Assembly: GCA_038040225.1 (NCBI GenBank)
Contig: JBBPIS010000024.1
Location: 4,259-68,258, forward strand
Length of the DNA: 64,000 nucleotides
DNA from: Planctomycetota bacterium
Lineage (GTDB): Bacteria > Planctomycetota > Planctomycetia > Planctomycetales > Planctomycetaceae
Reading direction: 5' to 3'
Shown here: one piece after another, positions 1 through 9,989 of the stretch
Position numbering within the stretch: the stretch's first letter is position 1
Layout: each line of letters starts with the position of its first letter
Notes under the pieces: model-generated
The model's database searches: none
What the model saw: the letters and a program-made list of their open reading frames with translations, nothing else
What the model was told of the DNA's origin: nothing
Program-made: the position numbers and the translations under genes

Positions 1-367
1 GTCTGTAAGCGGGCGCATAGGGCTGCGCGTAATATCCCGGGCTGCCGTACCCGTTGAGGTAATTCCCGTCTCCGTAGCTGTATCCGCTGTTGGGGCGGAA
101 GTGATACGAGCTCTGCGAGCCATAGCCGTACGGGCCGTTTCCATAACCCGAATACGTGTGCGTGTACGTTCTGGGGCCGTACCCATATCTTGGTGCGTAC
201 GCCCGGTATCCCTGTCCGTATCCACCGTAGTAGCCCCGGCCGTACCCGTTGTATTGAACCCCACCCCGGCCGATGGTCAGCGATTGGGCGTGGGCGTTAC
301 TCTGCGGAGTGGCCAGCGTGAACAGGCCGACGGCGAGTACCGATAAGCAAAGTAGTCGTGTCATCAT
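1..367 (-). CDS. Gly/Tyr-rich secreted low-complexity protein (partial, runs off window start)
   Basis: Hand translation from ATG at 367: MMTRLLCLSVLAVGLFTLATPQSNAHAQSLTIGRGGVQYNGYGRGYYGGYGQGY..., open to position 2. AAGGGA RBS upstream; signal-peptide-like N-terminus. Not in the ORF track. Confidence 0.8.
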   Translation of the reverse strand, partial: MMTRLLCLSVLAVGLFTLATPQSNAHAQSLTIGRGGVQYNGYGRGYYGGYGQGYRAYAPRYGYGPRTYTHTYSGYGNGPYGYGSQSSYHFRPNSGYSYGDGNYLNGYGSPGYYAQPYAPAYR

Positions 368-415
368 TTGTCCCTTGTGAATCCATCACAGTTGAAGTTG
401 ATCGAACCCGCCCGA

Positions 416-452
416 TGTGGCACGGAGCACCTTGCGGCGACCCCGTGCCACA
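416..452. repeat. Intergenic palindrome (GTGG-ended, REP-like)
   Basis: TGTGGCACGG (416-425) pairs with CCGTGCCACA (443-452). Confidence 0.5.
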
Positions 453-465
453 GGAACGGAAAGCC

Positions 466-1269
466 TTACTCCGTCTTCGTCCGCTCGGTCCTGCTGATCG
501 CCACTTTCGGAGTGGCAGGAGCGTTCTGACGATTCATGCGCAGTTGCGCGAGTTGTTCCTTCGTGAGCACCTTCTCGATCTCCACCAGCTTGTCGGCTTC
601 CAGCGACACCAGTCGGGTGTGCAGACCCTGGATGTCACGGTTCAAGGAACGCAGTTGGGAGTGATATTTCTCCTGAACCTTGTCGGCCGCAGCCTCCTGC
701 TCGTCGGTGAGTGACACACCGATATGCGAGAGTACTTCCTCGTCTGCGGTGGCAGGCTTGGTGGTCTCCTCATTCGGTTTGACCGTTGCCTGATTGACCT
801 TGGTGCTCGTGGCCGCGATCGTCTTCTCGTGCTGGGCAGTCTTGCGCCGCTGGTCGCGCACTTGCTGACGCTGGCCATCGGTCAGGTTGTCCTCAATTGC
901 CGCCAGCAACGATGACTCCATCGCGATCGTTTGCATGTAGCGGTCGCCGAATTGCTTCCACACCGCGCCGAGCGACGCATCGTAGTTGCGAACAATCTCC
1001 TTAATCTGATCTTGCTGCTGGGCGGAAAGCTTCAGCTTCTCCAGGCACTCCGGAATCGCGGCTGATTCGGAATGAGCCTTGCCCTGAATCGCCGCCCCCT
1101 TGTTGGTCGGCTTGACCTCAGTCGCGGCTGGCTCCTTGGCAAAGGCCGGAGCGAGGGCCATGACGCCGGCGACCGCCAACAGACTCGACACACGCCTGAA
1201 ACTGAGGCGGTGCAGAGTGGCTACTCCGTTGGACTGCACATTGCGGAAACCTGTCATTGAAAGACGCAT
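466..1269 (-). CDS. Secreted helical protein, Spy/CpxP (LTXXQ)-like
   Basis: Signal peptide ending APAFA; repeated LSAQQ/LTDGQ/LTDEQ/LTKEQ motifs; GGAG 9 nt upstream of ATG 1269. Confidence 0.7.
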   Translation of the reverse strand: MRLSMTGFRNVQSNGVATLHRLSFRRVSSLLAVAGVMALAPAFAKEPAATEVKPTNKGAAIQGKAHSESAAIPECLEKLKLSAQQQDQIKEIVRNYDASLGAVWKQFGDRYMQTIAMESSLLAAIEDNLTDGQRQQVRDQRRKTAQHEKTIAATSTKVNQATVKPNEETTKPATADEEVLSHIGVSLTDEQEAAADKVQEKYHSQLRSLNRDIQGLHTRLVSLEADKLVEIEKVLTKEQLAQLRMNRQNAPATPKVAISRTERTKTE

Positions 1270-1350
1270 CGTGATCATCTCCATCCGTAAAGGTCCAAAA
1301 CACACCGAGCGGACATTCCGTCGGTGAACTCTCGCCGCTGTCGAGTGGCG

Positions 1351-1442
1351 AAAAAAAAGCCGACGCGGCAGAAGACTTGGAGGTCTTCCATCGCGTCGGC
1401 TTACTCACTAACGAGCCTTCCGGCGTGGGCCGGGCTGCTCTT
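1351..1442 (-). promoter_or_regulatory. Structured leader element, proximal copy (hairpin + conserved linker + intrinsic terminator)
   Basis: Minus strand GAGCAGCCCGGCCCACGCCGGAAGGCTCGTTAGTGAGTAAGCCGACGCG...CGCGTCGGCTTTTTTTT; near-identical to 1471-1561. Confidence 0.75.
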
Positions 1443-1470
1443 TATGTAGTCGTCCGAAGTCGAGTCACAA

Positions 1471-1561
1471 AAGAAAAAGCCGACGCGACAGAACACCCGG
1501 AGGTCTTCCACTGCGTCGGCTTACTTACTAACGAGCCTTCCGGCGTGGCCGGGATGCTCTT
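1471..1561 (-). promoter_or_regulatory. Structured leader element, distal copy
   Basis: Minus strand GAGCATCCCGGCCACGCCGGAAGGCTCGTTAGTAAGTAAGCCGACGC...GCGTCGGCTTTTTCTT; 120 nt offset from the proximal copy. Confidence 0.75.
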
Positions 1562-1815
1562 CATTGAGTCTTCCGTTGCGATTGAGGGGCGAGTTTCAAA
1601 CTCATGCATCCTCAACGTCGGTCACGGTACGCTTCCGGAACGGGAATAGCTAGGAGGTTGTTTTTTTTATTCTGAGATTGATAGCATTTCGCACGAATTA
1701 CTTTGAGAACCTGCAAACTTCCCGGGTTTTCACCCCAGTCTGCTGTCTGTCGTCTACCGACGGACACGTCGGGGGTCGCCATGAAAGCTGAAGTCACAAT
1801 GAGCATGAGGTCGCG

Positions 1816-2196
1816 GTGAAAACACAGGGTGAAATCGAAGCGGCGGTCAGCCATGGGATCTCGCGTTTTGAACAGGAGTACATGGGCCGTGGTCCGAAGG
1901 ACATCCAGACCCACCTGATTGGTGATCTGCTGGTGGTTCGACTGCACGGTGTGTTGACCGCAGCCGAACAGCAACTGGTCAAGACGCTCCTGCCCGAGAA
2001 GGGGCGGGATCTGCTCAAGCAAGTCCGCACCCAATTAATCGAACTGGCACGCCCCGTCATGGAAGCGATGATCGAGGCTGCCACCGGCGTCAAAGTGCTC
2101 AGCCTGCATCACGACATCAGCACCAGCACCGGTGAAGAAATTGTGCTCTTCACCCTGACCGAGGCACCCATGTTCCGTGAATCGAAGCATAAGTAG
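1816..2196 (+). CDS. DUF2294 / MpsC-like protein
   Basis: KTQGEIEAA...GRGPKDI...GVLT.AE...GRDLLKQVR..LIE...LHHDIST.TGEE pattern characteristic of DUF2294; GTG start with GAGG upstream. Confidence 0.85.
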   Translation: MKTQGEIEAAVSHGISRFEQEYMGRGPKDIQTHLIGDLLVVRLHGVLTAAEQQLVKTLLPEKGRDLLKQVRTQLIELARPVMEAMIEAATGVKVLSLHHDISTSTGEEIVLFTLTEAPMFRESKHK

Positions 2197-2443
2197 ACTT
2201 TCAACCGTCTCGATCTTCGGCCAACTCCGGGCAGCGTTCCACCAGGGATAGGGCGGCCCCGGCATCTCGCAAACCGATCATCCTGAATGACCTCGCGAAC
2301 TGCTTCTCGTCGAGTCGGAAGCCGAGATCAAAACAGTCGCTGCGGTTTTCGAGTCCTGCCATCGGATTGTCCACTGGCGATGATTGTCGATGGAAGTGCA
2401 GTCGTCACAGATGCCGTGCCAACCCAATGACTAACGATGTTGG

Positions 2444-2478
2444 AAAAAAAAGGACTCAGAGCGATTCGCTCCAAGTCC
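2444..2478 (-). terminator. Intrinsic terminator downstream of tRNA-Gln
   Basis: Minus strand GGACT-TG-GAGCG-AAT-CGCTC-TG-AGTCC followed by 8 T. Confidence 0.75.
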
Positions 2479-2525
2479 TCTCATCATTTCCGAATCGCAT
2501 CACTCACAATGTGAGTGCTGAAGAG

Positions 2526-2596
2526 TTGCCCGACGAGGATTCGAACCTCGACTAAGTGATTCAGAGTCACTCGTGCTACCGTTACACAATCGGGCA
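2526..2596 (-). tRNA. tRNA-Gln (anticodon CTG)
   Basis: Cloverleaf: acceptor TGCCCGA/TCGGGCA, anticodon arm AGTGA-CTCTGAA-TCACT, T arm CGAGG-TTCGAAT-CCTCG; CCA not encoded. Confidence 0.95.
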
Positions 2597-2843
2597 ATGT
2601 CACCTGGCCAAGGGGGGCCGGGCTGTCAATCGAGCCGCAGTTTTTGGTGGCGGGGCTCGGGTCGCGGAAGGGTGCGAAGTATACTCGCCTCCCCAGTTTT
2701 GCCAATTCCGAATGAGTAGTTTTTTGGTCTGGCACTTGGTGCGAATCCGAATTTGGCTTCGCAGTGCGGTCAAATCGACATCCGGACCGTGGTGCCAGGT
2801 GTCTTCCATCAGTCATCTCCATGATTCAGGGAAAGGTCTTCTT

Positions 2844-3641
2844 GTGGCAGACACCGATGAATTGTTTTCGGTTCGCGATCAGGTCGTGCTTGTTTCGGGG
2901 GGGAGTCGCGGCATCGGGCGTGGATTGGCGGAGGGCTTCGCCGCGCGGGGGGCTCGCGTGATCATCACGGGACGAGAAGAGTTGACTCTGAAAGAGGTGG
3001 CTCGCGAAATCACAGGCAGCTCGCACGCGGTGGACTTTGTGGTCTGTGACGTCTCCCAACCTGACGACGTGCCGCGACTGATCGAGACCGTTGTGACAAA
3101 GGCCGGACGAATTGACTCGCTGCTCAACGTGGCGGGAGTCAACATCCGCAAGCGGGTTGAAACCTACTCGGTCGAAGAGTACGACCACATTTTGAACATC
3201 AACCTCAAGGGAGCGTTTCTCGTCGCGCAGGCCGTTGGTAAACAGATGATCGCTCAGGGGGCGGGGGGGACGATCGTCAACATCGACTCGTTGAACACGT
3301 TTGCTCCGCTGATGGGCGTGCTGCCGTACGCGATGAGCAAGGCGGGGCTGGGCATGATGACGCGGGGGATGGGAATGGAGTGGGGCGTTCACAACATTCG
3401 AGTCAACGCGATTGCGCCCGGCTTCGTCCTGACCGACCTGACGCAGAAGCTGTGGTCCGATCCGACGATGCAGGCGTGGGGCCAGGCCAATACCCCGCTA
3501 AAACGGCTCGGCCGACCCGAGGACATGTTGGGGGCGGCCCTGTTCCTGACAAGTGCCGCGTCGGCGTACATGACGGGTCAGGTGATCTACGTGGATGGCG
3601 GAATCACCTGCGGCATGCATTGGCCGATCCCGCTGAATTGA
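2844..3641 (+). CDS. SDR oxidoreductase (gluconate 5-dehydrogenase/KduD-like)
   Basis: SGGSRGIG Rossmann motif, NVAG, YAMSK catalytic motif, IRVNAIAPG; GTG start at 2844 (track ORF over-extends into the tRNA). Confidence 0.9.
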   Translation: MADTDELFSVRDQVVLVSGGSRGIGRGLAEGFAARGARVIITGREELTLKEVAREITGSSHAVDFVVCDVSQPDDVPRLIETVVTKAGRIDSLLNVAGVNIRKRVETYSVEEYDHILNINLKGAFLVAQAVGKQMIAQGAGGTIVNIDSLNTFAPLMGVLPYAMSKAGLGMMTRGMGMEWGVHNIRVNAIAPGFVLTDLTQKLWSDPTMQAWGQANTPLKRLGRPEDMLGAALFLTSAASAYMTGQVIYVDGGITCGMHWPIPLN

Positions 3642-3705
3642 GGGTGCGCGTGCAGACAGAACCGGGGGCGGATGCCGCGCGTCCCGAAAGAAGGATTTGA
3701 GAGCG

Positions 3706-5340
3706 ATGCGCCGTCGAATGAATCGGCACGATCCGCAGGATCGTCACCGGTTCTGTTTCGAGTTTCTGGGGCACCCGCCATTTCCGGAGCTATGTTTCGG
3801 GCGGACGTTCCGATTGAGAGGCTCGCGGGTTTCTCGACTGCCGTCTGCCCGACGGCCTTTCGCCGACGTGGCATCACGTGGCGGAGACCGAACGATGTTT
3901 GCGTGGTTCCCAACCAAACGACCTCAGCCCCGACCGTTTCCTCGCGCGGACGAACGGCTCGCTCAAGAATTGCGAACCGCGCGAATCGGTCTCGACAGGC
4001 AAGTCTTCTGGGGGTTGATCGCCCAGTGGGCGGTTGTGTTGGTGGCAACGCTGGCCTTGTCGGCCGGTGTCGACTTCGCGCGCGTCGGCTTCGTGTGGTC
4101 GACATTGCTTCTGAATGGAGTCCTGACCGGAGTCCCGCTGTGGCTCGTGCTGCGCTCGCCGGGAGAACGATCGTCGCGTCTGGCGGTTGCCATCAGTCAG
4201 GGTTTGTTTTCGACGCTGCTTCTGTACGCAACCGCCGGTCGAGTGGAGACTCATCTGCACCTGTTCGCGTGGTTGGTTGTGTTGGCCGTCTACCGAGACG
4301 TTCGTGTCCTGATCGCAGCCGGTGCCGCGGCCATTGTCAGTCAACTGGTCGCAGGTCTGGTTGTCGGGTCACCCGAGATGGTTGCTGCCAACTTCAGCCA
4401 TCTTGGTGAACATGCGGTCTGGTTGATCGTGGAGACGACATGTCTGGCGACATTCATTCGCTTCAGCGTGCAGGCCATGTCCGATCTGGCGCGGCGCGAA
4501 GCGGCGCTTGAATCACTCAACAACAATCTCGAACGGAAGGTGGAACGCCGGACTCGCGAAATGTCCGAGAAGCTCGAAGCCCTGCATCGTGAGTACGCGG
4601 TGATTCAGGAAATCCGCGATCAGACGGACGTCGATGAGATGTCCGCTGTCAGGCAATTGTCGCAGTTGCGTCGCGACGTTTCGGCGCACGCGATGACTTT
4701 GATGGACACCACGTGGGGCTGGTCGGAGACCAGGTTGCCCGAGGCGCTTCGTCCCCACTGGCGCACGATCCGCGAGGCATCTCAGAACCTGCTGAGCCTC
4801 GTGGAGACATCGACCCCCGCGGACGATTCGCTCTCGAACTCACTGGTTGGTCTGCGAACGTTCAACTCGAAAACGCCCGCCGTCGAAGCCACTGTCGAAT
4901 CGAGCGTCGAATCATTCAGCCGGACGGCCCTGCTCCTGATCGACGATCCCGTGCAGGAGGCACTGGCCGTCCATTCGCTTTCGCAGGAGGGGTTCCGAGT
5001 CGACGTCGCTCACGGCGGGCCCCGCGCGTACTACTCGGCCATGCTGCGGAATTACGATTTGATCGTGATCGACATCGACCTGGCCAATGAGGAAGGCTTC
5101 GACACGATCGAAGCGCTGCGGTTGTTGCCGAACGGGATCGATGATTCCACGGGCGTGTTCGCCTTCTCCTCCGCCCGCACGCCGGATGCGGTGCTGCGTG
5201 GCACCCAACTCGGGATTGACGGATTCCTTGTGAAACCGATGAAACCGGAGTCACTACGGGCGGCGCTTGCGGGTCACTCTCACGCCGACTCGTCCCACGA
5301 GGTTCGCGTGGAGCACGAGGCCGTCGCCGCCGGTTCGTGA
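3706..5340 (+). CDS. Multi-TM sensor + coiled coil + receiver (REC) domain protein
   Basis: About six TM segments with VETHLHLF motif, LERKVERRT coiled coil, C-terminal REC (LLIDD...VIDIDL...LVKP); no HATPase boxes. Confidence 0.75.
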   Translation: MRRRMNRHDPQDRHRFCFEFLGHPPFPELCFGRTFRLRGSRVSRLPSARRPFADVASRGGDRTMFAWFPTKRPQPRPFPRADERLAQELRTARIGLDRQVFWGLIAQWAVVLVATLALSAGVDFARVGFVWSTLLLNGVLTGVPLWLVLRSPGERSSRLAVAISQGLFSTLLLYATAGRVETHLHLFAWLVVLAVYRDVRVLIAAGAAAIVSQLVAGLVVGSPEMVAANFSHLGEHAVWLIVETTCLATFIRFSVQAMSDLARREAALESLNNNLERKVERRTREMSEKLEALHREYAVIQEIRDQTDVDEMSAVRQLSQLRRDVSAHAMTLMDTTWGWSETRLPEALRPHWRTIREASQNLLSLVETSTPADDSLSNSLVGLRTFNSKTPAVEATVESSVESFSRTALLLIDDPVQEALAVHSLSQEGFRVDVAHGGPRAYYSAMLRNYDLIVIDIDLANEEGFDTIEALRLLPNGIDDSTGVFAFSSARTPDAVLRGTQLGIDGFLVKPMKPESLRAALAGHSHADSSHEVRVEHEAVAAGS

Positions 5341-8600: not shown

Positions 8601-9989
8601 CTGGCCTACCGCGAGATCAAGTCGAGCAGCGGTGGCTTGCCCGGCTGCCCGGTCGGCAAGTTGTCGGTCCCCGACGCGATTTCCCAGCAACGCGCCGCCG
8701 TGATGGCGATGCGACCCCGTCTGCCCTTGTCCATCGTGAAGCCCGCCGAACCGGCTTCGGTCCGAAAGGTCGATCTGAAGAAGCAGGATCTTGGGCTGAT
8801 CCTGGGCAGCAATGATTGGCCTACCGGGACGCTGTTTGAAGCCTCAGGCAACGGCCTCTGTTCGATGTCGCCCGCGAAAGTTGAGGGCCGGTCGTTGCGC
8901 ATCGTCTTCCGCCAGATCGACGGCACTCCGCTGAGACTGCACGCCAGGACGAGTGACGGCAAGGCACCGGATGCGACGGCGCTGTTCTCGATCACCCGCG
9001 GTTCGCTGGAGTTGACGAACGCGGTTCTCGAATGTCCGGCCGCAGCCAAGTTGAGTGCTCCGCCGTGGATGATTCTCGCCAACGACGCGACGCTCATCCT
9101 GAACGGTTGCCGATTGCAGGGGTCCGAAGTTGACGGGCCTCACCAGCAGGGACTCATTCGATGGATGACTGCGGCACCGGCAGCCGGGGCCGCGCTGGCC
9201 GAACTGCCGGTTCTTTTTTGTCGGGACAGTTATCTGACCGGCTTCGGCTGCGGCATCCGTGTGGAATCGGGGCAGGGTCACATCGTGCTCAGGAACAGCA
9301 TCATCGCGATTCGCGGAGATGGTGCCGCAGTTCGGGGAGACTGTCTGGACCTGCGTCCCGTTCGCGCGGGGGACACGTTGCTCACGGCGGTCGATGCCGA
9401 ACACGTCACGTTCTCGGCGGGCGGTGCCGCGATCCGAGTGCAGGCCGTGACCGGCAGCGATCAGCCGGTCAGTTCGCCGTTGCGACTGTTCGTCGAACGG
9501 TGCGCCGTGGCGCCGCCGCTGGTGTTCAAGGCGGGTGAAGGGAGCGATGCCACGCTGGTCAGATGTGACGGGCCGGTGCTCGAACAGAAGCAGTTTGAGT
9601 GGTGGGGTGTCTCGAACGGCGTGGCGAAGCAGGTCGTTCAGTTCCTCCACCGCGAAGGGGATCCCTCCGGAGCCTCGGACAAGACGGGAGTCGCCGCGTG
9701 GCGTCAGACATGGGGCAAATCGAACGACGTGCGGATGCTGATCGGCGACAGTGGGGTCTACCTCGCGGGAGAACTGCCGATCAAATGGAAGGATTTGCGT
9801 CCGAGTTCATTCGAGTTGCATAAAAACTCCAAGGCGGCGACCTGGGCGGAAGGCAAGCCGATCGGCGCGAACGTGCGCGGCGTTGATGATGGCAGCATCG
9901 CGAAAAAGGCAGGGCCGGAACCGACGACAGGTACGAAGGCCGCGCCCGGCGCGACAGCTCCGACCCCCAAAAAGAATGTTGGCTTCTGA
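5679..9989 (+). CDS. Membrane-anchored Hanks-type Ser/Thr kinase with large C-terminal region
   Basis: IGAGGMGTV, VALKVL, HRDIKPSN, DLGLA, GTVDYMSPEQ; acidic linker; one TM (VIVAILGLGWLI); GAGG before ATG 5679. Confidence 0.92.
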   Translation: MTADGKAAVTGAGAQPPESVTEMKLIGKYQIEKRIGAGGMGTVYLARDTQLKRVVALKVLSRDKAQNPTLVKRFQAEAQAAAQLRHDNIVAVYDSGEADGYLFIAMEYVEGQDLFEMVQRRGVTPVKRSIEIIKQVAAALQHAYEQNIVHRDIKPSNLLIARHNGMVKLTDLGLARSVDDTLETNITRAGTTVGTVDYMSPEQARNSKLADIRSDLYSLGCTWYHMLTGEPPYPEGSVTNKLQAHAIKPIPDPRAKNPKIPEGLTAVLQRLMAKKPEDRYQTPAELLDDLKHATLTHGAISREILGNLSDYDQKTVGHAGAASDDEDDDDGYDDEDDDDYDEAVEEQATPDHVPTSYAPTRRKVTKAPRETDEEDEVETHSTPTRSRDSKENSEPAEVERLRSNKPKVTKAPRETDEEDEAETRSTPNRSRDSKENSDPAELERVRRNKPKTTKAAEEEIAADSRHSSPKPRDAKSDPKPADSTPAKARSHKPLPPKREPVKEAGDEVKKGISPETLRYLGAFSGVIVAILGLGWLIQAFSGNVGFDSNPFAGAPDPKAVQQAAVANPPPNANTKTSDQTAAKGNDSATAVTPTVPVRVNAPVAEFDVEALPTWASKDAEPTGLPIRTVGPGAASESRFQTLDEALRALPPAGAIVKLEGGGPFPLSTVELSNVKRLVLMSASTQDRAVIALKPSENNGTVGIKLTDGILEVRGIHFALDRNQFPGGAKILEVVDGQLFVQQSSFTATGPDSVATVAMVASSTQDATVEPRLAPSVLVDRVVVRGDGLKGLAVQRANVDVVVRDSLLVTGSAAAVELTGHLTAGVADAVTHKPRRIVRVIRSTVYSRRCAFDLSTSSDSGSKPPRTDIVMQDSLCCAQGVAENSALILAARWPQVRSTTENWLTRLKWISKGSLYLGFEQLVDLGSDFKVSDATAWQRVWYGKHDTRQFHKLTFPDAAPGDLSTVSPQEFESSSLAYREIKSSSGGLPGCPVGKLSVPDAISQQRAAVMAMRPRLPLSIVKPAEPASVRKVDLKKQDLGLILGSNDWPTGTLFEASGNGLCSMSPAKVEGRSLRIVFRQIDGTPLRLHARTSDGKAPDATALFSITRGSLELTNAVLECPAAAKLSAPPWMILANDATLILNGCRLQGSEVDGPHQQGLIRWMTAAPAAGAALAELPVLFCRDSYLTGFGCGIRVESGQGHIVLRNSIIAIRGDGAAVRGDCLDLRPVRAGDTLLTAVDAEHVTFSAGGAAIRVQAVTGSDQPVSSPLRLFVERCAVAPPLVFKAGEGSDATLVRCDGPVLEQKQFEWWGVSNGVAKQVVQFLHREGDPSGASDKTGVAAWRQTWGKSNDVRMLIGDSGVYLAGELPIKWKDLRPSSFELHKNSKAATWAEGKPIGANVRGVDDGSIAKKAGPEPTTGTKAAPGATAPTPKKNVGF
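6765..7040 (+). repeat. In-frame 132-bp tandem repeat (2 copies + start of a third) in kinase linker
   Basis: AAGGTGACGAAGGCCCCCCGCGAAACGGACGAGGAG at 6765 and 6897; AAGACGACAAAGGCC at 7029. Confidence 0.9.

Follow-up and report, generated by a model that had tools for sequence, protein, structure and literature searches.

In a 64,000-nucleotide (nt) stretch of DNA from a Planctomycetota bacterium (positions 4,259-68,258 of contig JBBPIS010000024.1, assembly GCA_038040225.1; hereafter the window), mpsC1, a gene for a protein of the DUF2294/MpsC family, stands back-to-back with a tandem leader RNA whose two units each end in a predicted transcription terminator. Across the Planctomycetota, the DUF2294 gene adjoins this uncatalogued leader almost always, and both the distribution and the synteny of the two strongly support a functional coupling between them. 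We propose that a short antiterminator helix in the leader is held in place by bound MpsC, a proposal to which we give about an even chance of being correct. DUF2294/MpsC is a widespread family without an assigned function, and the present analysis offers a concrete and testable role for it as the partner of a leader RNA. The analysis also defines the RNA itself, by two covariance models with strong covariation, together with a proposed switch helix and a regulon.

The minus strand of the window carries at 1335-1580 two direct copies of a 120-nt unit, which are 88% identical across an 83-nt core repeat. Unit A (1469-1578, minus strand) comprises a 5' box CGGAAGACU, a hairpin termed P1, a linker AGUAAGCCGACG and a terminator (stem 1477-1522 plus U-run), and scores 114.2 bits with R1, the covariance model made from the units of this genome. 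The second tandem copy, unit B (1349-1459, minus strand; terminator stem 1357-1402 plus U-run), scores 111.3 bits. Both fold stably, with -52 kcal/mol for unit A (z=-3.9 against shuffles) and -52.2 kcal/mol for unit B (z=-4.2). On sequence and fold, each unit closes with a GC-rich stem of about 20 bp followed by U5-U8, from which intrinsic termination is predicted. A simple terminator scan missed both of these long, imperfect stems, and folding and covariation were used instead. mpsC1 lies on the plus strand at 1816-2196, so that the divergent arrangement of the gene and a tandem leader, as described in a first-pass annotation of the window made from the sequence alone, is borne out.

The leader is not confined to this locus. 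The genome of 8.24 Mb, which its nearest relatives place with the Schlesneria/Planctomyces-type planctomycetes, contains eight leader units at seven sites, and matches to R1 in congeners range from none in some to dozens in others. An alignment of this family, termed variant A here (123 sequences from 79 loci), shows 94.3% of cells paired, compared with 32-48% in slid controls. Compensatory changes occur in 31 of its 37 pairs, a value equalled by none of 500 shuffles, and 18 of the 22 terminator pairs covary. The consensus reads UCGGAnGACU, P1 with a variable loop, GGnGGC..GUU..AGUAAGCCGACG, terminator. In a search of window positions 1-4000 against Rfam 15, a tRNA was the sole match at E<=1 and the leader was assigned to no family. 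The leader RNA is a real multi-copy structured element which is absent from Rfam.

The first-pass annotation had suggested DUF2294 as the trans-acting factor of the leader and had named co-occurrence of the two across genomes as a check. The two distributions are not independent: counted as both, RNA only, PF10057 (the Pfam family of DUF2294) only and neither, 61 relatives gave 26/2/4/29 (Fisher p=7e-11, in statistics that ignore kinship). The association was found within the genus (21/2/0/10, p=7e-7) as well as outside of it (5/0/4/19, p=0.0013). For 301 genomes sampled across the phylum, the corresponding counts for variant A or its divergent counterpart, variant B (see below), were 19/1/7/274. 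PF10057 was present in 26 of these genomes and variant A in eight, seven of which were PF10057-positive; among the 275 PF10057-negative genomes, variant B matched none and variant A a single one.

Gene order points in the same direction. Eighty MpsC1 loci were taken from a collection of species-representative genomes; the encoded orthologs are 74-87% identical and span Planctomycetia and Phycisphaerae. A search of the 700 nt ahead of mpsC1 detected a leader on the other strand in 68 of the 80, at a distance of 107-563 nt from the start codon (median 215, most between 180 and 245). This divergent arrangement of gene and RNA is far beyond chance. A second, co-directional leader directly downstream of mpsC1 was found at 12 of the 80 loci, and tandem leader doublets as in the window at nine of the related loci. 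Three loci with a planctomycete-type MpsC1 and leader (L126, L141 and L156) are labelled as Verrucomicrobia, Bacillota and Methanomassiliicoccaceae, and are probably mis-binned metagenome contigs. One congener without DUF2294 (G028) carries at least four well-scoring leaders on C20:1-7000 and C124 (L196, L197), two of them back-to-back at the usual place of mpsC1 and another directly ahead of a CsrA paralog.

Behind the leader, the gene order is conserved as well. For at least 29 of 118 leaders, the first open reading frame (ORF) encodes a paralog of the MpsC2 type and starts about 45 nt past the terminator, and csrA follows mpsC2 in 29 of the 80 loci and in this genome. These two observations define a conserved core order of mpsC1, divergent promoters, leader, mpsC2 and csrA. 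In the genome studied here, the row of minus-strand genes continues past the window edge with a CsbD-like gene (by reading, no Pfam match), a weak BON match below the cut-off, mpsC2 (PF10057, E=1e-19, 70.9 bits) and the csrA paralog (PF02599, E=3e-12). At locus L156 (273-905, minus strand), mpsC2 and csrA form one frame of 211 amino acids (aa), which is either a natural fusion or an assembly frameshift.

A third PF10057 gene of this genome (C301:50-955, L031) encodes a 302-aa fusion of a receiver domain (REC, E=1.5e-22) with MpsC (E=5.7e-27, 94.4 bits). No further Pfam domain was found in it, leaving MpsC as the sole output domain, and similar frames of about 300 aa occur near leaders in relatives. 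From this fusion, the DUF2294 domain can be classed as a regulatory or signalling output. In the protein tree, REC-MpsC nests within the MpsC1 clade, and MpsC2 forms a distant paralog group. The gene next to the fusion on the short contig C301 encodes a secreted protein of unknown function.

The genes gated by variant A leaders are diverse. In the window, the first is an ORF at 466-1269 (minus strand) for a secreted protein (signal peptide by reading) of 268/279 aa with LxxxQ-rich repeats and no Pfam family. Its earlier description as Spy-like has to be given up, since there is no match to the LTXXQ/Spy family at E<=0.01. The second ORF, at 1-367 (minus strand), is cut by the window edge and encodes a Gly/Tyr-rich secreted protein of 131 aa on the contig. 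Elsewhere in this genome, leaders precede genes for metal-binding proteins, an LxxxQ-repeat protein, an ice-binding-like protein (by reading) and a DAO-Rieske oxidoreductase (by match). The leader at C56:23383-23493 (L025 4384-8660) is followed, by reading, by genes for a secreted 180-aa protein and two CxxCH cytochrome-like proteins and by nrfH-nrfA for a cytochrome c nitrite reductase; on C17, a homologous 180-aa gene lies 1.2 kb from the leader, ahead of Cys-rich, YHS/TRASH-like and HMA-like metal-binding genes (by reading). The leader copy on C65 (L030) precedes an ice-binding-like/SdrD-like gene. This copy (9760-9902) has a masked N run in its terminator, which leaves its sequence incomplete. 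Further variant A cargo includes signalling genes (KaiC, hybrid histidine kinase, GGDEF, PP2C, sigma-54 activator) as well as genes for Band 7, fatty-acid desaturase, Transgly_assoc, OmpA-collagen and ice-binding-like proteins and several DUFs.

Variant B was recognized on inspection of 19 PF10057-positive genomes without variant A RNA, in most of which weak leader matches adjoin mpsC, usually directly downstream. The layout is co-directional: mpsC is followed by a near-consensus TTGACA-N17-TATAAT promoter, the variant leader and the cargo. The leader consists of GGCAGAU, a GGGGG hairpin, CUGC, GAAGAUAGGCCGGC and a terminator; compensatory changes were found in 14 of 25 pairs, and these leaders have no match in Rfam either. 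The variant B model, R3, detected 13 of the 301 phylum genomes, all PF10057-positive, with extra copies elsewhere in the genomes; R3 was trained on mpsC-adjacent sequences, which makes these positives partly circular. The cargo of variant B was assigned by Pfam at L160, L172, L171, L166, L164 and L169 and by reading at the remaining loci. It comprises phosphoenolpyruvate carboxykinase (PEPCK) of the GTP type (L160; by reading L161, L162, L174 and L189), an ATP-type PEPCK-like enzyme (L172; by reading L173), SbtA (Sbt_1, E=1.7e-123), a NuoL/DabB-like subunit (L166), argininosuccinate synthase, DUF4914 and a gene resembling pyruvate:ferredoxin oxidoreductase (PFOR; by reading).

The A-type MpsC1 proteins are nested in the more diverse B-type MpsC, so that the protein clades follow the RNA variants. 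The A-type clade is tight and short-branched (100/99 in the tree), and its RNA is similarly uniform. This uniformity of MpsC1 and RNA suggests a recent horizontal spread of the module or an unusually strong constraint.

The shared intergenic region was studied in an alignment of 53 orthologous sequences. At the leader promoter site, the boxes CTTGCnTT-N17-TACAAT are conserved, about 45 nt before the start of the model. In the window, the putative sigma-70-like leader promoter occupies 1624-1652 on the minus strand, with a -35 box at 1652-1647 (TAGCTA) and a -10 box at 1629-1624 (TACCGT), 17 nt apart. On the plus strand, a putative extended -10 element of the mpsC1 promoter (TGaTAGCAT, 1679-1687) coincides with a TTGGTATnAT box at the same place of the alignment. 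The spacer at 1655-1720 contains 33% G+C against 61% in the window, in agreement with its earlier description as AT-rich. The two back-to-back promoters alone are conserved in the 53 regions, and no operator-like box was seen. Ahead of the first leader unit, the nascent RNA is predicted to fold a 5' hairpin (TTGAGG...CCTCAA, 1582-1614, minus strand). Orthologs have a differently sequenced hairpin at the equivalent position of the alignment. An extracytoplasmic function (ECF)-type promoter, considered for GTTTGAAAC upstream of unit A, was dropped, since that sequence is part of the 5' hairpin of variable sequence and the conserved boxes, which lie farther upstream, agree with a sigma-70 promoter.

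The same region contains the hairpin CCGACG-GACA-CGTCGG in the 5' untranslated region of mpsC1 (1757-1772, plus strand), which had been interpreted as sharing its stem core with the leader terminators and hence as a sign of autoregulation. The sequence is indeed present, but it lies outside the system, and its reading as an autoregulatory element was abandoned on the grounds of chance frequency and lack of conservation in the closest relatives. The window has one perfect 6-bp hairpin per 357 nt, which gives 0.66 expected in the 236-nt intergenic region. The hexamers CCGACG (56 copies in 64 kb) and CGTCGG (57 copies) exceed their expected frequency 3.6-fold, and L080 and L081, the closest of the orthologous loci, lack the hairpin. 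Another CCGACG word upstream (about 1620) stands at or before the predicted start site and is likewise not conserved.

The element on which our proposal centres is a helix termed P0, which can form between two conserved segments, the 5' box UCGGAUGACU and the linker AGUAAGCCGA, the latter including the first four bases of the 5' arm of the terminator. The pairing consists of CGG/CCG, a purine-rich internal loop of the A.G/G.A type and ACU/AGU, with the CCG within the first bases of the terminator 5' arm. When nascent unit A was folded to mid-terminator, the 5' hairpin formed together with P0 closing P1. Of the P0 cells, 89% are pairable in variant A and 85% in variant B. Between the two variants, CGG/CCG in P0 is exchanged for GGC/GCC, and within variant B the covariation score of P0 exceeds 497 of 500 shuffles.

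According to the proposed mechanism, the leader would be transcribed from its sigma-70-type promoter and fold the small irregular hairpin P1, directly followed by the long intrinsic terminator, so that a stop before the downstream genes would be the default. P0 would form first on the nascent RNA and exclude the base of the terminator. MpsC1, produced from its own divergent promoter and therefore not gated by the leader, would bind the platform of P0 and P1 and keep P0 closed; the U-run would then be detached from the remaining hairpin and RNA polymerase would read through. An intrinsic terminator hairpin that is detached from its U-run should terminate more weakly. Since a held P0 separates the terminator hairpin from the U-run, a factor clamping P0 and P1 would act as an antiterminator. 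The leaders dispersed over the genome, eight units in all, would form a regulon, MpsC2 as the usual first gated gene might exert feedback, the receiver-MpsC fusion could bring in two-component signals, and two tandem units in series may provide a tighter gate.

MpsC1 is the best candidate for the clamp, because its gene adjoins the leader yet stays outside its control in the divergent layout of variant A and in the co-directional layout of variant B, as would be expected of a trans-acting factor. The receiver fusion, the tracking of protein and RNA variants, and the multi-copy regulon argue for the same assignment, as do the strong promoters, which imply control after initiation.

Several observations weigh against this proposal. 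Both strands of P0 are invariant in variant A, and the helix thus has no covariation of its own there. Kinship may account for a part of the co-occurrence, and the partly circular training of R3 for a part of its agreement with PF10057. Three genomes (G027, G028 and G115) carry good motif copies without a PF10057 gene; MpsC is therefore not strictly required for retention of the RNA. The AlphaFold2 (AF2) model of MpsC1, an alpha/beta fold with a predicted local distance difference test (pLDDT) score of 90.3, had no significant neighbour when compared with the PDB by Foldseek (best E=0.023, template modelling score 0.37), and a recognised RNA-binding fold was not found in this modelled structure. 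The insignificant matches were Bet3/TRAPPC3, uL23 and H-NOX, and a PDB sequence search with MpsC returned zero matches. Furthermore, MpsC1 and MpsC2 are mildly acidic, with isoelectric points of 6.3 and 5.2.

Some of these points bear on an alternative in which the leader is a self-sufficient ON riboswitch, whose ligand or ion stabilises P0 and P1, and DUF2294 is only a functionally related neighbour, for instance a sensor or an enzyme-like partner. The retention of the RNA in the three genomes without DUF2294 agrees with this idea, as do the conserved bases in the single-stranded 5' box, the internal loops and the linker, which recall small aptamers. The cargo of variant B is chemically coherent (PEPCK, SbtA, NuoL-like and, by reading, PFOR-like), and the weak fold matches of MpsC are to small-molecule-binding folds (H-NOX, Bet3/V4R-like). 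A riboswitch would leave unexplained, however, why one gene family stands beside the leader in 68 of 80 loci yet outside its control, why MpsC is fused to a receiver, and why protein clades track RNA variants; moreover, the heterogeneous stress and signalling cargo of variant A has no common substrate. We consider this alternative unlikely.

A different protein might also be the RNA ligand. The CsrA paralog encoded behind mpsC2 could bind at the GGA of the 5' box and at the GA-containing terminator arm, with DUF2294 modulating CsrA by protein contact. Besides the csrA gene in the operon of this genome and after mpsC2 in the 29 loci, the read-through frame of L156 and the leader directly ahead of csrA in the MpsC-less G028 speak for such a role. 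The variant A RNA has one invariant GGA in the single-stranded box/P0, and the 5' box UCGGAUGA resembles the core that CsrA selects in systematic evolution of ligands by exponential enrichment (SELEX), GGAUG. The GGA is not placed in a hairpin loop, though, variant B lacks the GGA box altogether, and no csrA was seen in variant B loci. CsrA paralogs are present in all 61 genomes (8-14 genes in each member of the genus, 2-12 in other genomes of the class) irrespective of the motif, and for this reason the family was discarded as an uninformative marker of co-occurrence. On balance, CsrA as the primary ligand appears quite improbable.

It is also very unlikely, in our view, that DUF2294 acts at the DNA level, as a transcription factor bound to DNA or RNA polymerase at the shared intergenic promoters, with the RNA regulated separately or serving as a fixed attenuator. 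Regulators that bind DNA typically lie divergent to their target at a fixed distance, and the REC fusion would be equally compatible with a DNA-binding output. Nevertheless, the alignment of 53 intergenic regions shows two promoters and no operator-like box, and the dispersed members of the regulon have the RNA in common rather than an upstream DNA site. The near-consensus promoters of variant B point to control after initiation, and neither a helix-turn-helix nor another DNA-binding fold was found in the AF2 model by Foldseek. Finally, that the 110-nt units are free-standing genes for trans-acting small RNAs, titrating a protein for example, and do not gate downstream genes is scarcely credible. 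In its favour, a promoter and an efficient-looking terminator are present at every locus, and the multi-copy, sometimes tandem units recall Rsm/Csr sponge RNAs. On the other side, many copies are followed by a co-directional ORF a few tens of nt past the terminator; the distance is typically about 45 nt in the case of mpsC2, reaches a few hundred nt at other copies and is about 1.2 kb on C17. A further conserved promoter was not noticed in these intervals, which were not systematically examined, and the second tandem unit has no promoter of its own.

The mpsC1 gene encodes a protein of 126 aa, of which residues 3-115 match PF10057 with E=1e-36 and 125.8 bits (cut-off 23). Its GTG start agrees with the conserved MKTQ start in the alignment of orthologs. 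A 12-codon upstream ORF (ATG..TGA, 1781-1819, plus strand) ends in GGTGA and overlaps this start codon, and the stop/start overlap is apparently kept in the two closest relatives (L080 and L081; alignment by reading); distant orthologs have a plain ATG start and no upstream ORF. The overlap may reflect translational coupling. Directly downstream of mpsC1 is a tRNA-Gln gene (CTG, 2525-2596, minus strand), and the further neighbours encode an SDR protein, a hybrid sensor, a Ser/Thr kinase and secreted proteins.

There is no transporter among these neighbours, as the first-pass annotation had stated. Neither a NuoL-like (MpsA/DabB) gene nor a DUF2309 (MpsB/DabA) gene, the latter not searched genome-wide, is adjacent to mpsC1. 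The accompanying statement that DUF2294/MpsC genes accompany MpsAB/DabAB transporters holds only for staphylococci, and even there the deletion of mpsC in S. aureus had no phenotype and the gene was judged to be outside MpsAB function (PMC6689103). In a full-text literature search for DUF2294 and YbcI, the former was named in a single paper on an unrelated subject, no function assigned to DUF2294 was found, and nothing useful on YbcI.

A response to CO2 or bicarbonate had also been suggested, with motif copies ahead of genes for carbonic anhydrase, DabAB or SulP as a possible sign. None of the eight copies in this genome precedes such a gene, and the idea finds no support here. Indirect support comes from elsewhere, as variant leaders precede genes for PEPCK, SbtA and a NuoL/DabB-like protein. 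Returning to MpsC as the leader-binding factor, a wider reading can be put forward, tentatively and with rather less confidence than the binding itself. DUF2294/MpsC would be a new family of RNA-binding antiterminators, stand-alone or receiver-fused, which co-evolves with its own class of leader-terminators. In most Planctomycetota it would serve genes of inorganic-carbon and phosphoenolpyruvate-pyruvate-oxaloacetate metabolism (PEPCK, SbtA, Dab-like), and in the Schlesneria-type lineage it would have expanded, perhaps horizontally, to a stress and signalling regulon. If true, this would also account for mpsC beside bicarbonate pumps in Firmicutes, and would show by what means stress and inorganic-carbon genes are controlled after initiation in the Planctomycetota, a phylum whose gene regulation has been little explored.

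Among known systems, the carriers of the same domain are MpsC of the S. aureus mpsABC locus and YbcI of Bacillus subtilis. The link to inorganic carbon recurs in the variant B lineages with SbtA, the NuoL-like protein and PEPCK; in contrast to mpsABC, the window has no adjacent transporter and its gated genes encode proteins of the secreted and stress type. With regard to the RNA, transcriptional ON riboswitches with small aptamers include the guanidine, fluoride and Na+/Li+ classes, some in tandem arrangements. The leader described here likewise couples a compact aptamer-like domain to an intrinsic terminator, in tandem copies and with diverse cargo, but it differs from these classes in having no Rfam match and in the specific protein family linked to it, a partner that riboswitches can do without.

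The protein-dependent systems offer closer parallels. HutP of Bacillus subtilis is a small ligand-activated protein encoded just upstream of the hut terminator, which it overrides by RNA binding, and the layout of variant B comes closest to this system. Unlike HutP, MpsC matches PF10057 alone and has no significant PDB neighbour, and no run of UAG triplets was seen in the consensus by reading; unlike the hut case, mpsC in the window is divergent and does not share a transcript with the leader, copies of which are dispersed as a regulon. The ANTAR regulators (EutV, AmiR, NasT/NasR) also combine a receiver with a small output domain and have several leader-terminator targets per genome, and their antitermination holds a structure overlapping the 5' arm of the terminator, as proposed here. 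An ANTAR domain was not found by Pfam, which reported PF10057 and, in the fusion, REC; most MpsC copies, moreover, stand alone without a receiver, and instead of the two hexaloop hairpins of ANTAR targets the leader has one irregular hairpin with a variable loop and conserved single-stranded boxes. PyrR, TRAP and BglG/SacY follow the same principle of a protein-dependent choice between antiterminator and terminator, and pyr operons also contain serial attenuators. Their protein folds and RNA motifs are unrelated, and TRAP and PyrR promote termination, whereas the direction of control that we infer for the MpsC leader is antitermination. Should binding be confirmed, DUF2294/MpsC would take its place as a new family beside the HutP, ANTAR, PyrR, TRAP and BglG antitermination factors.

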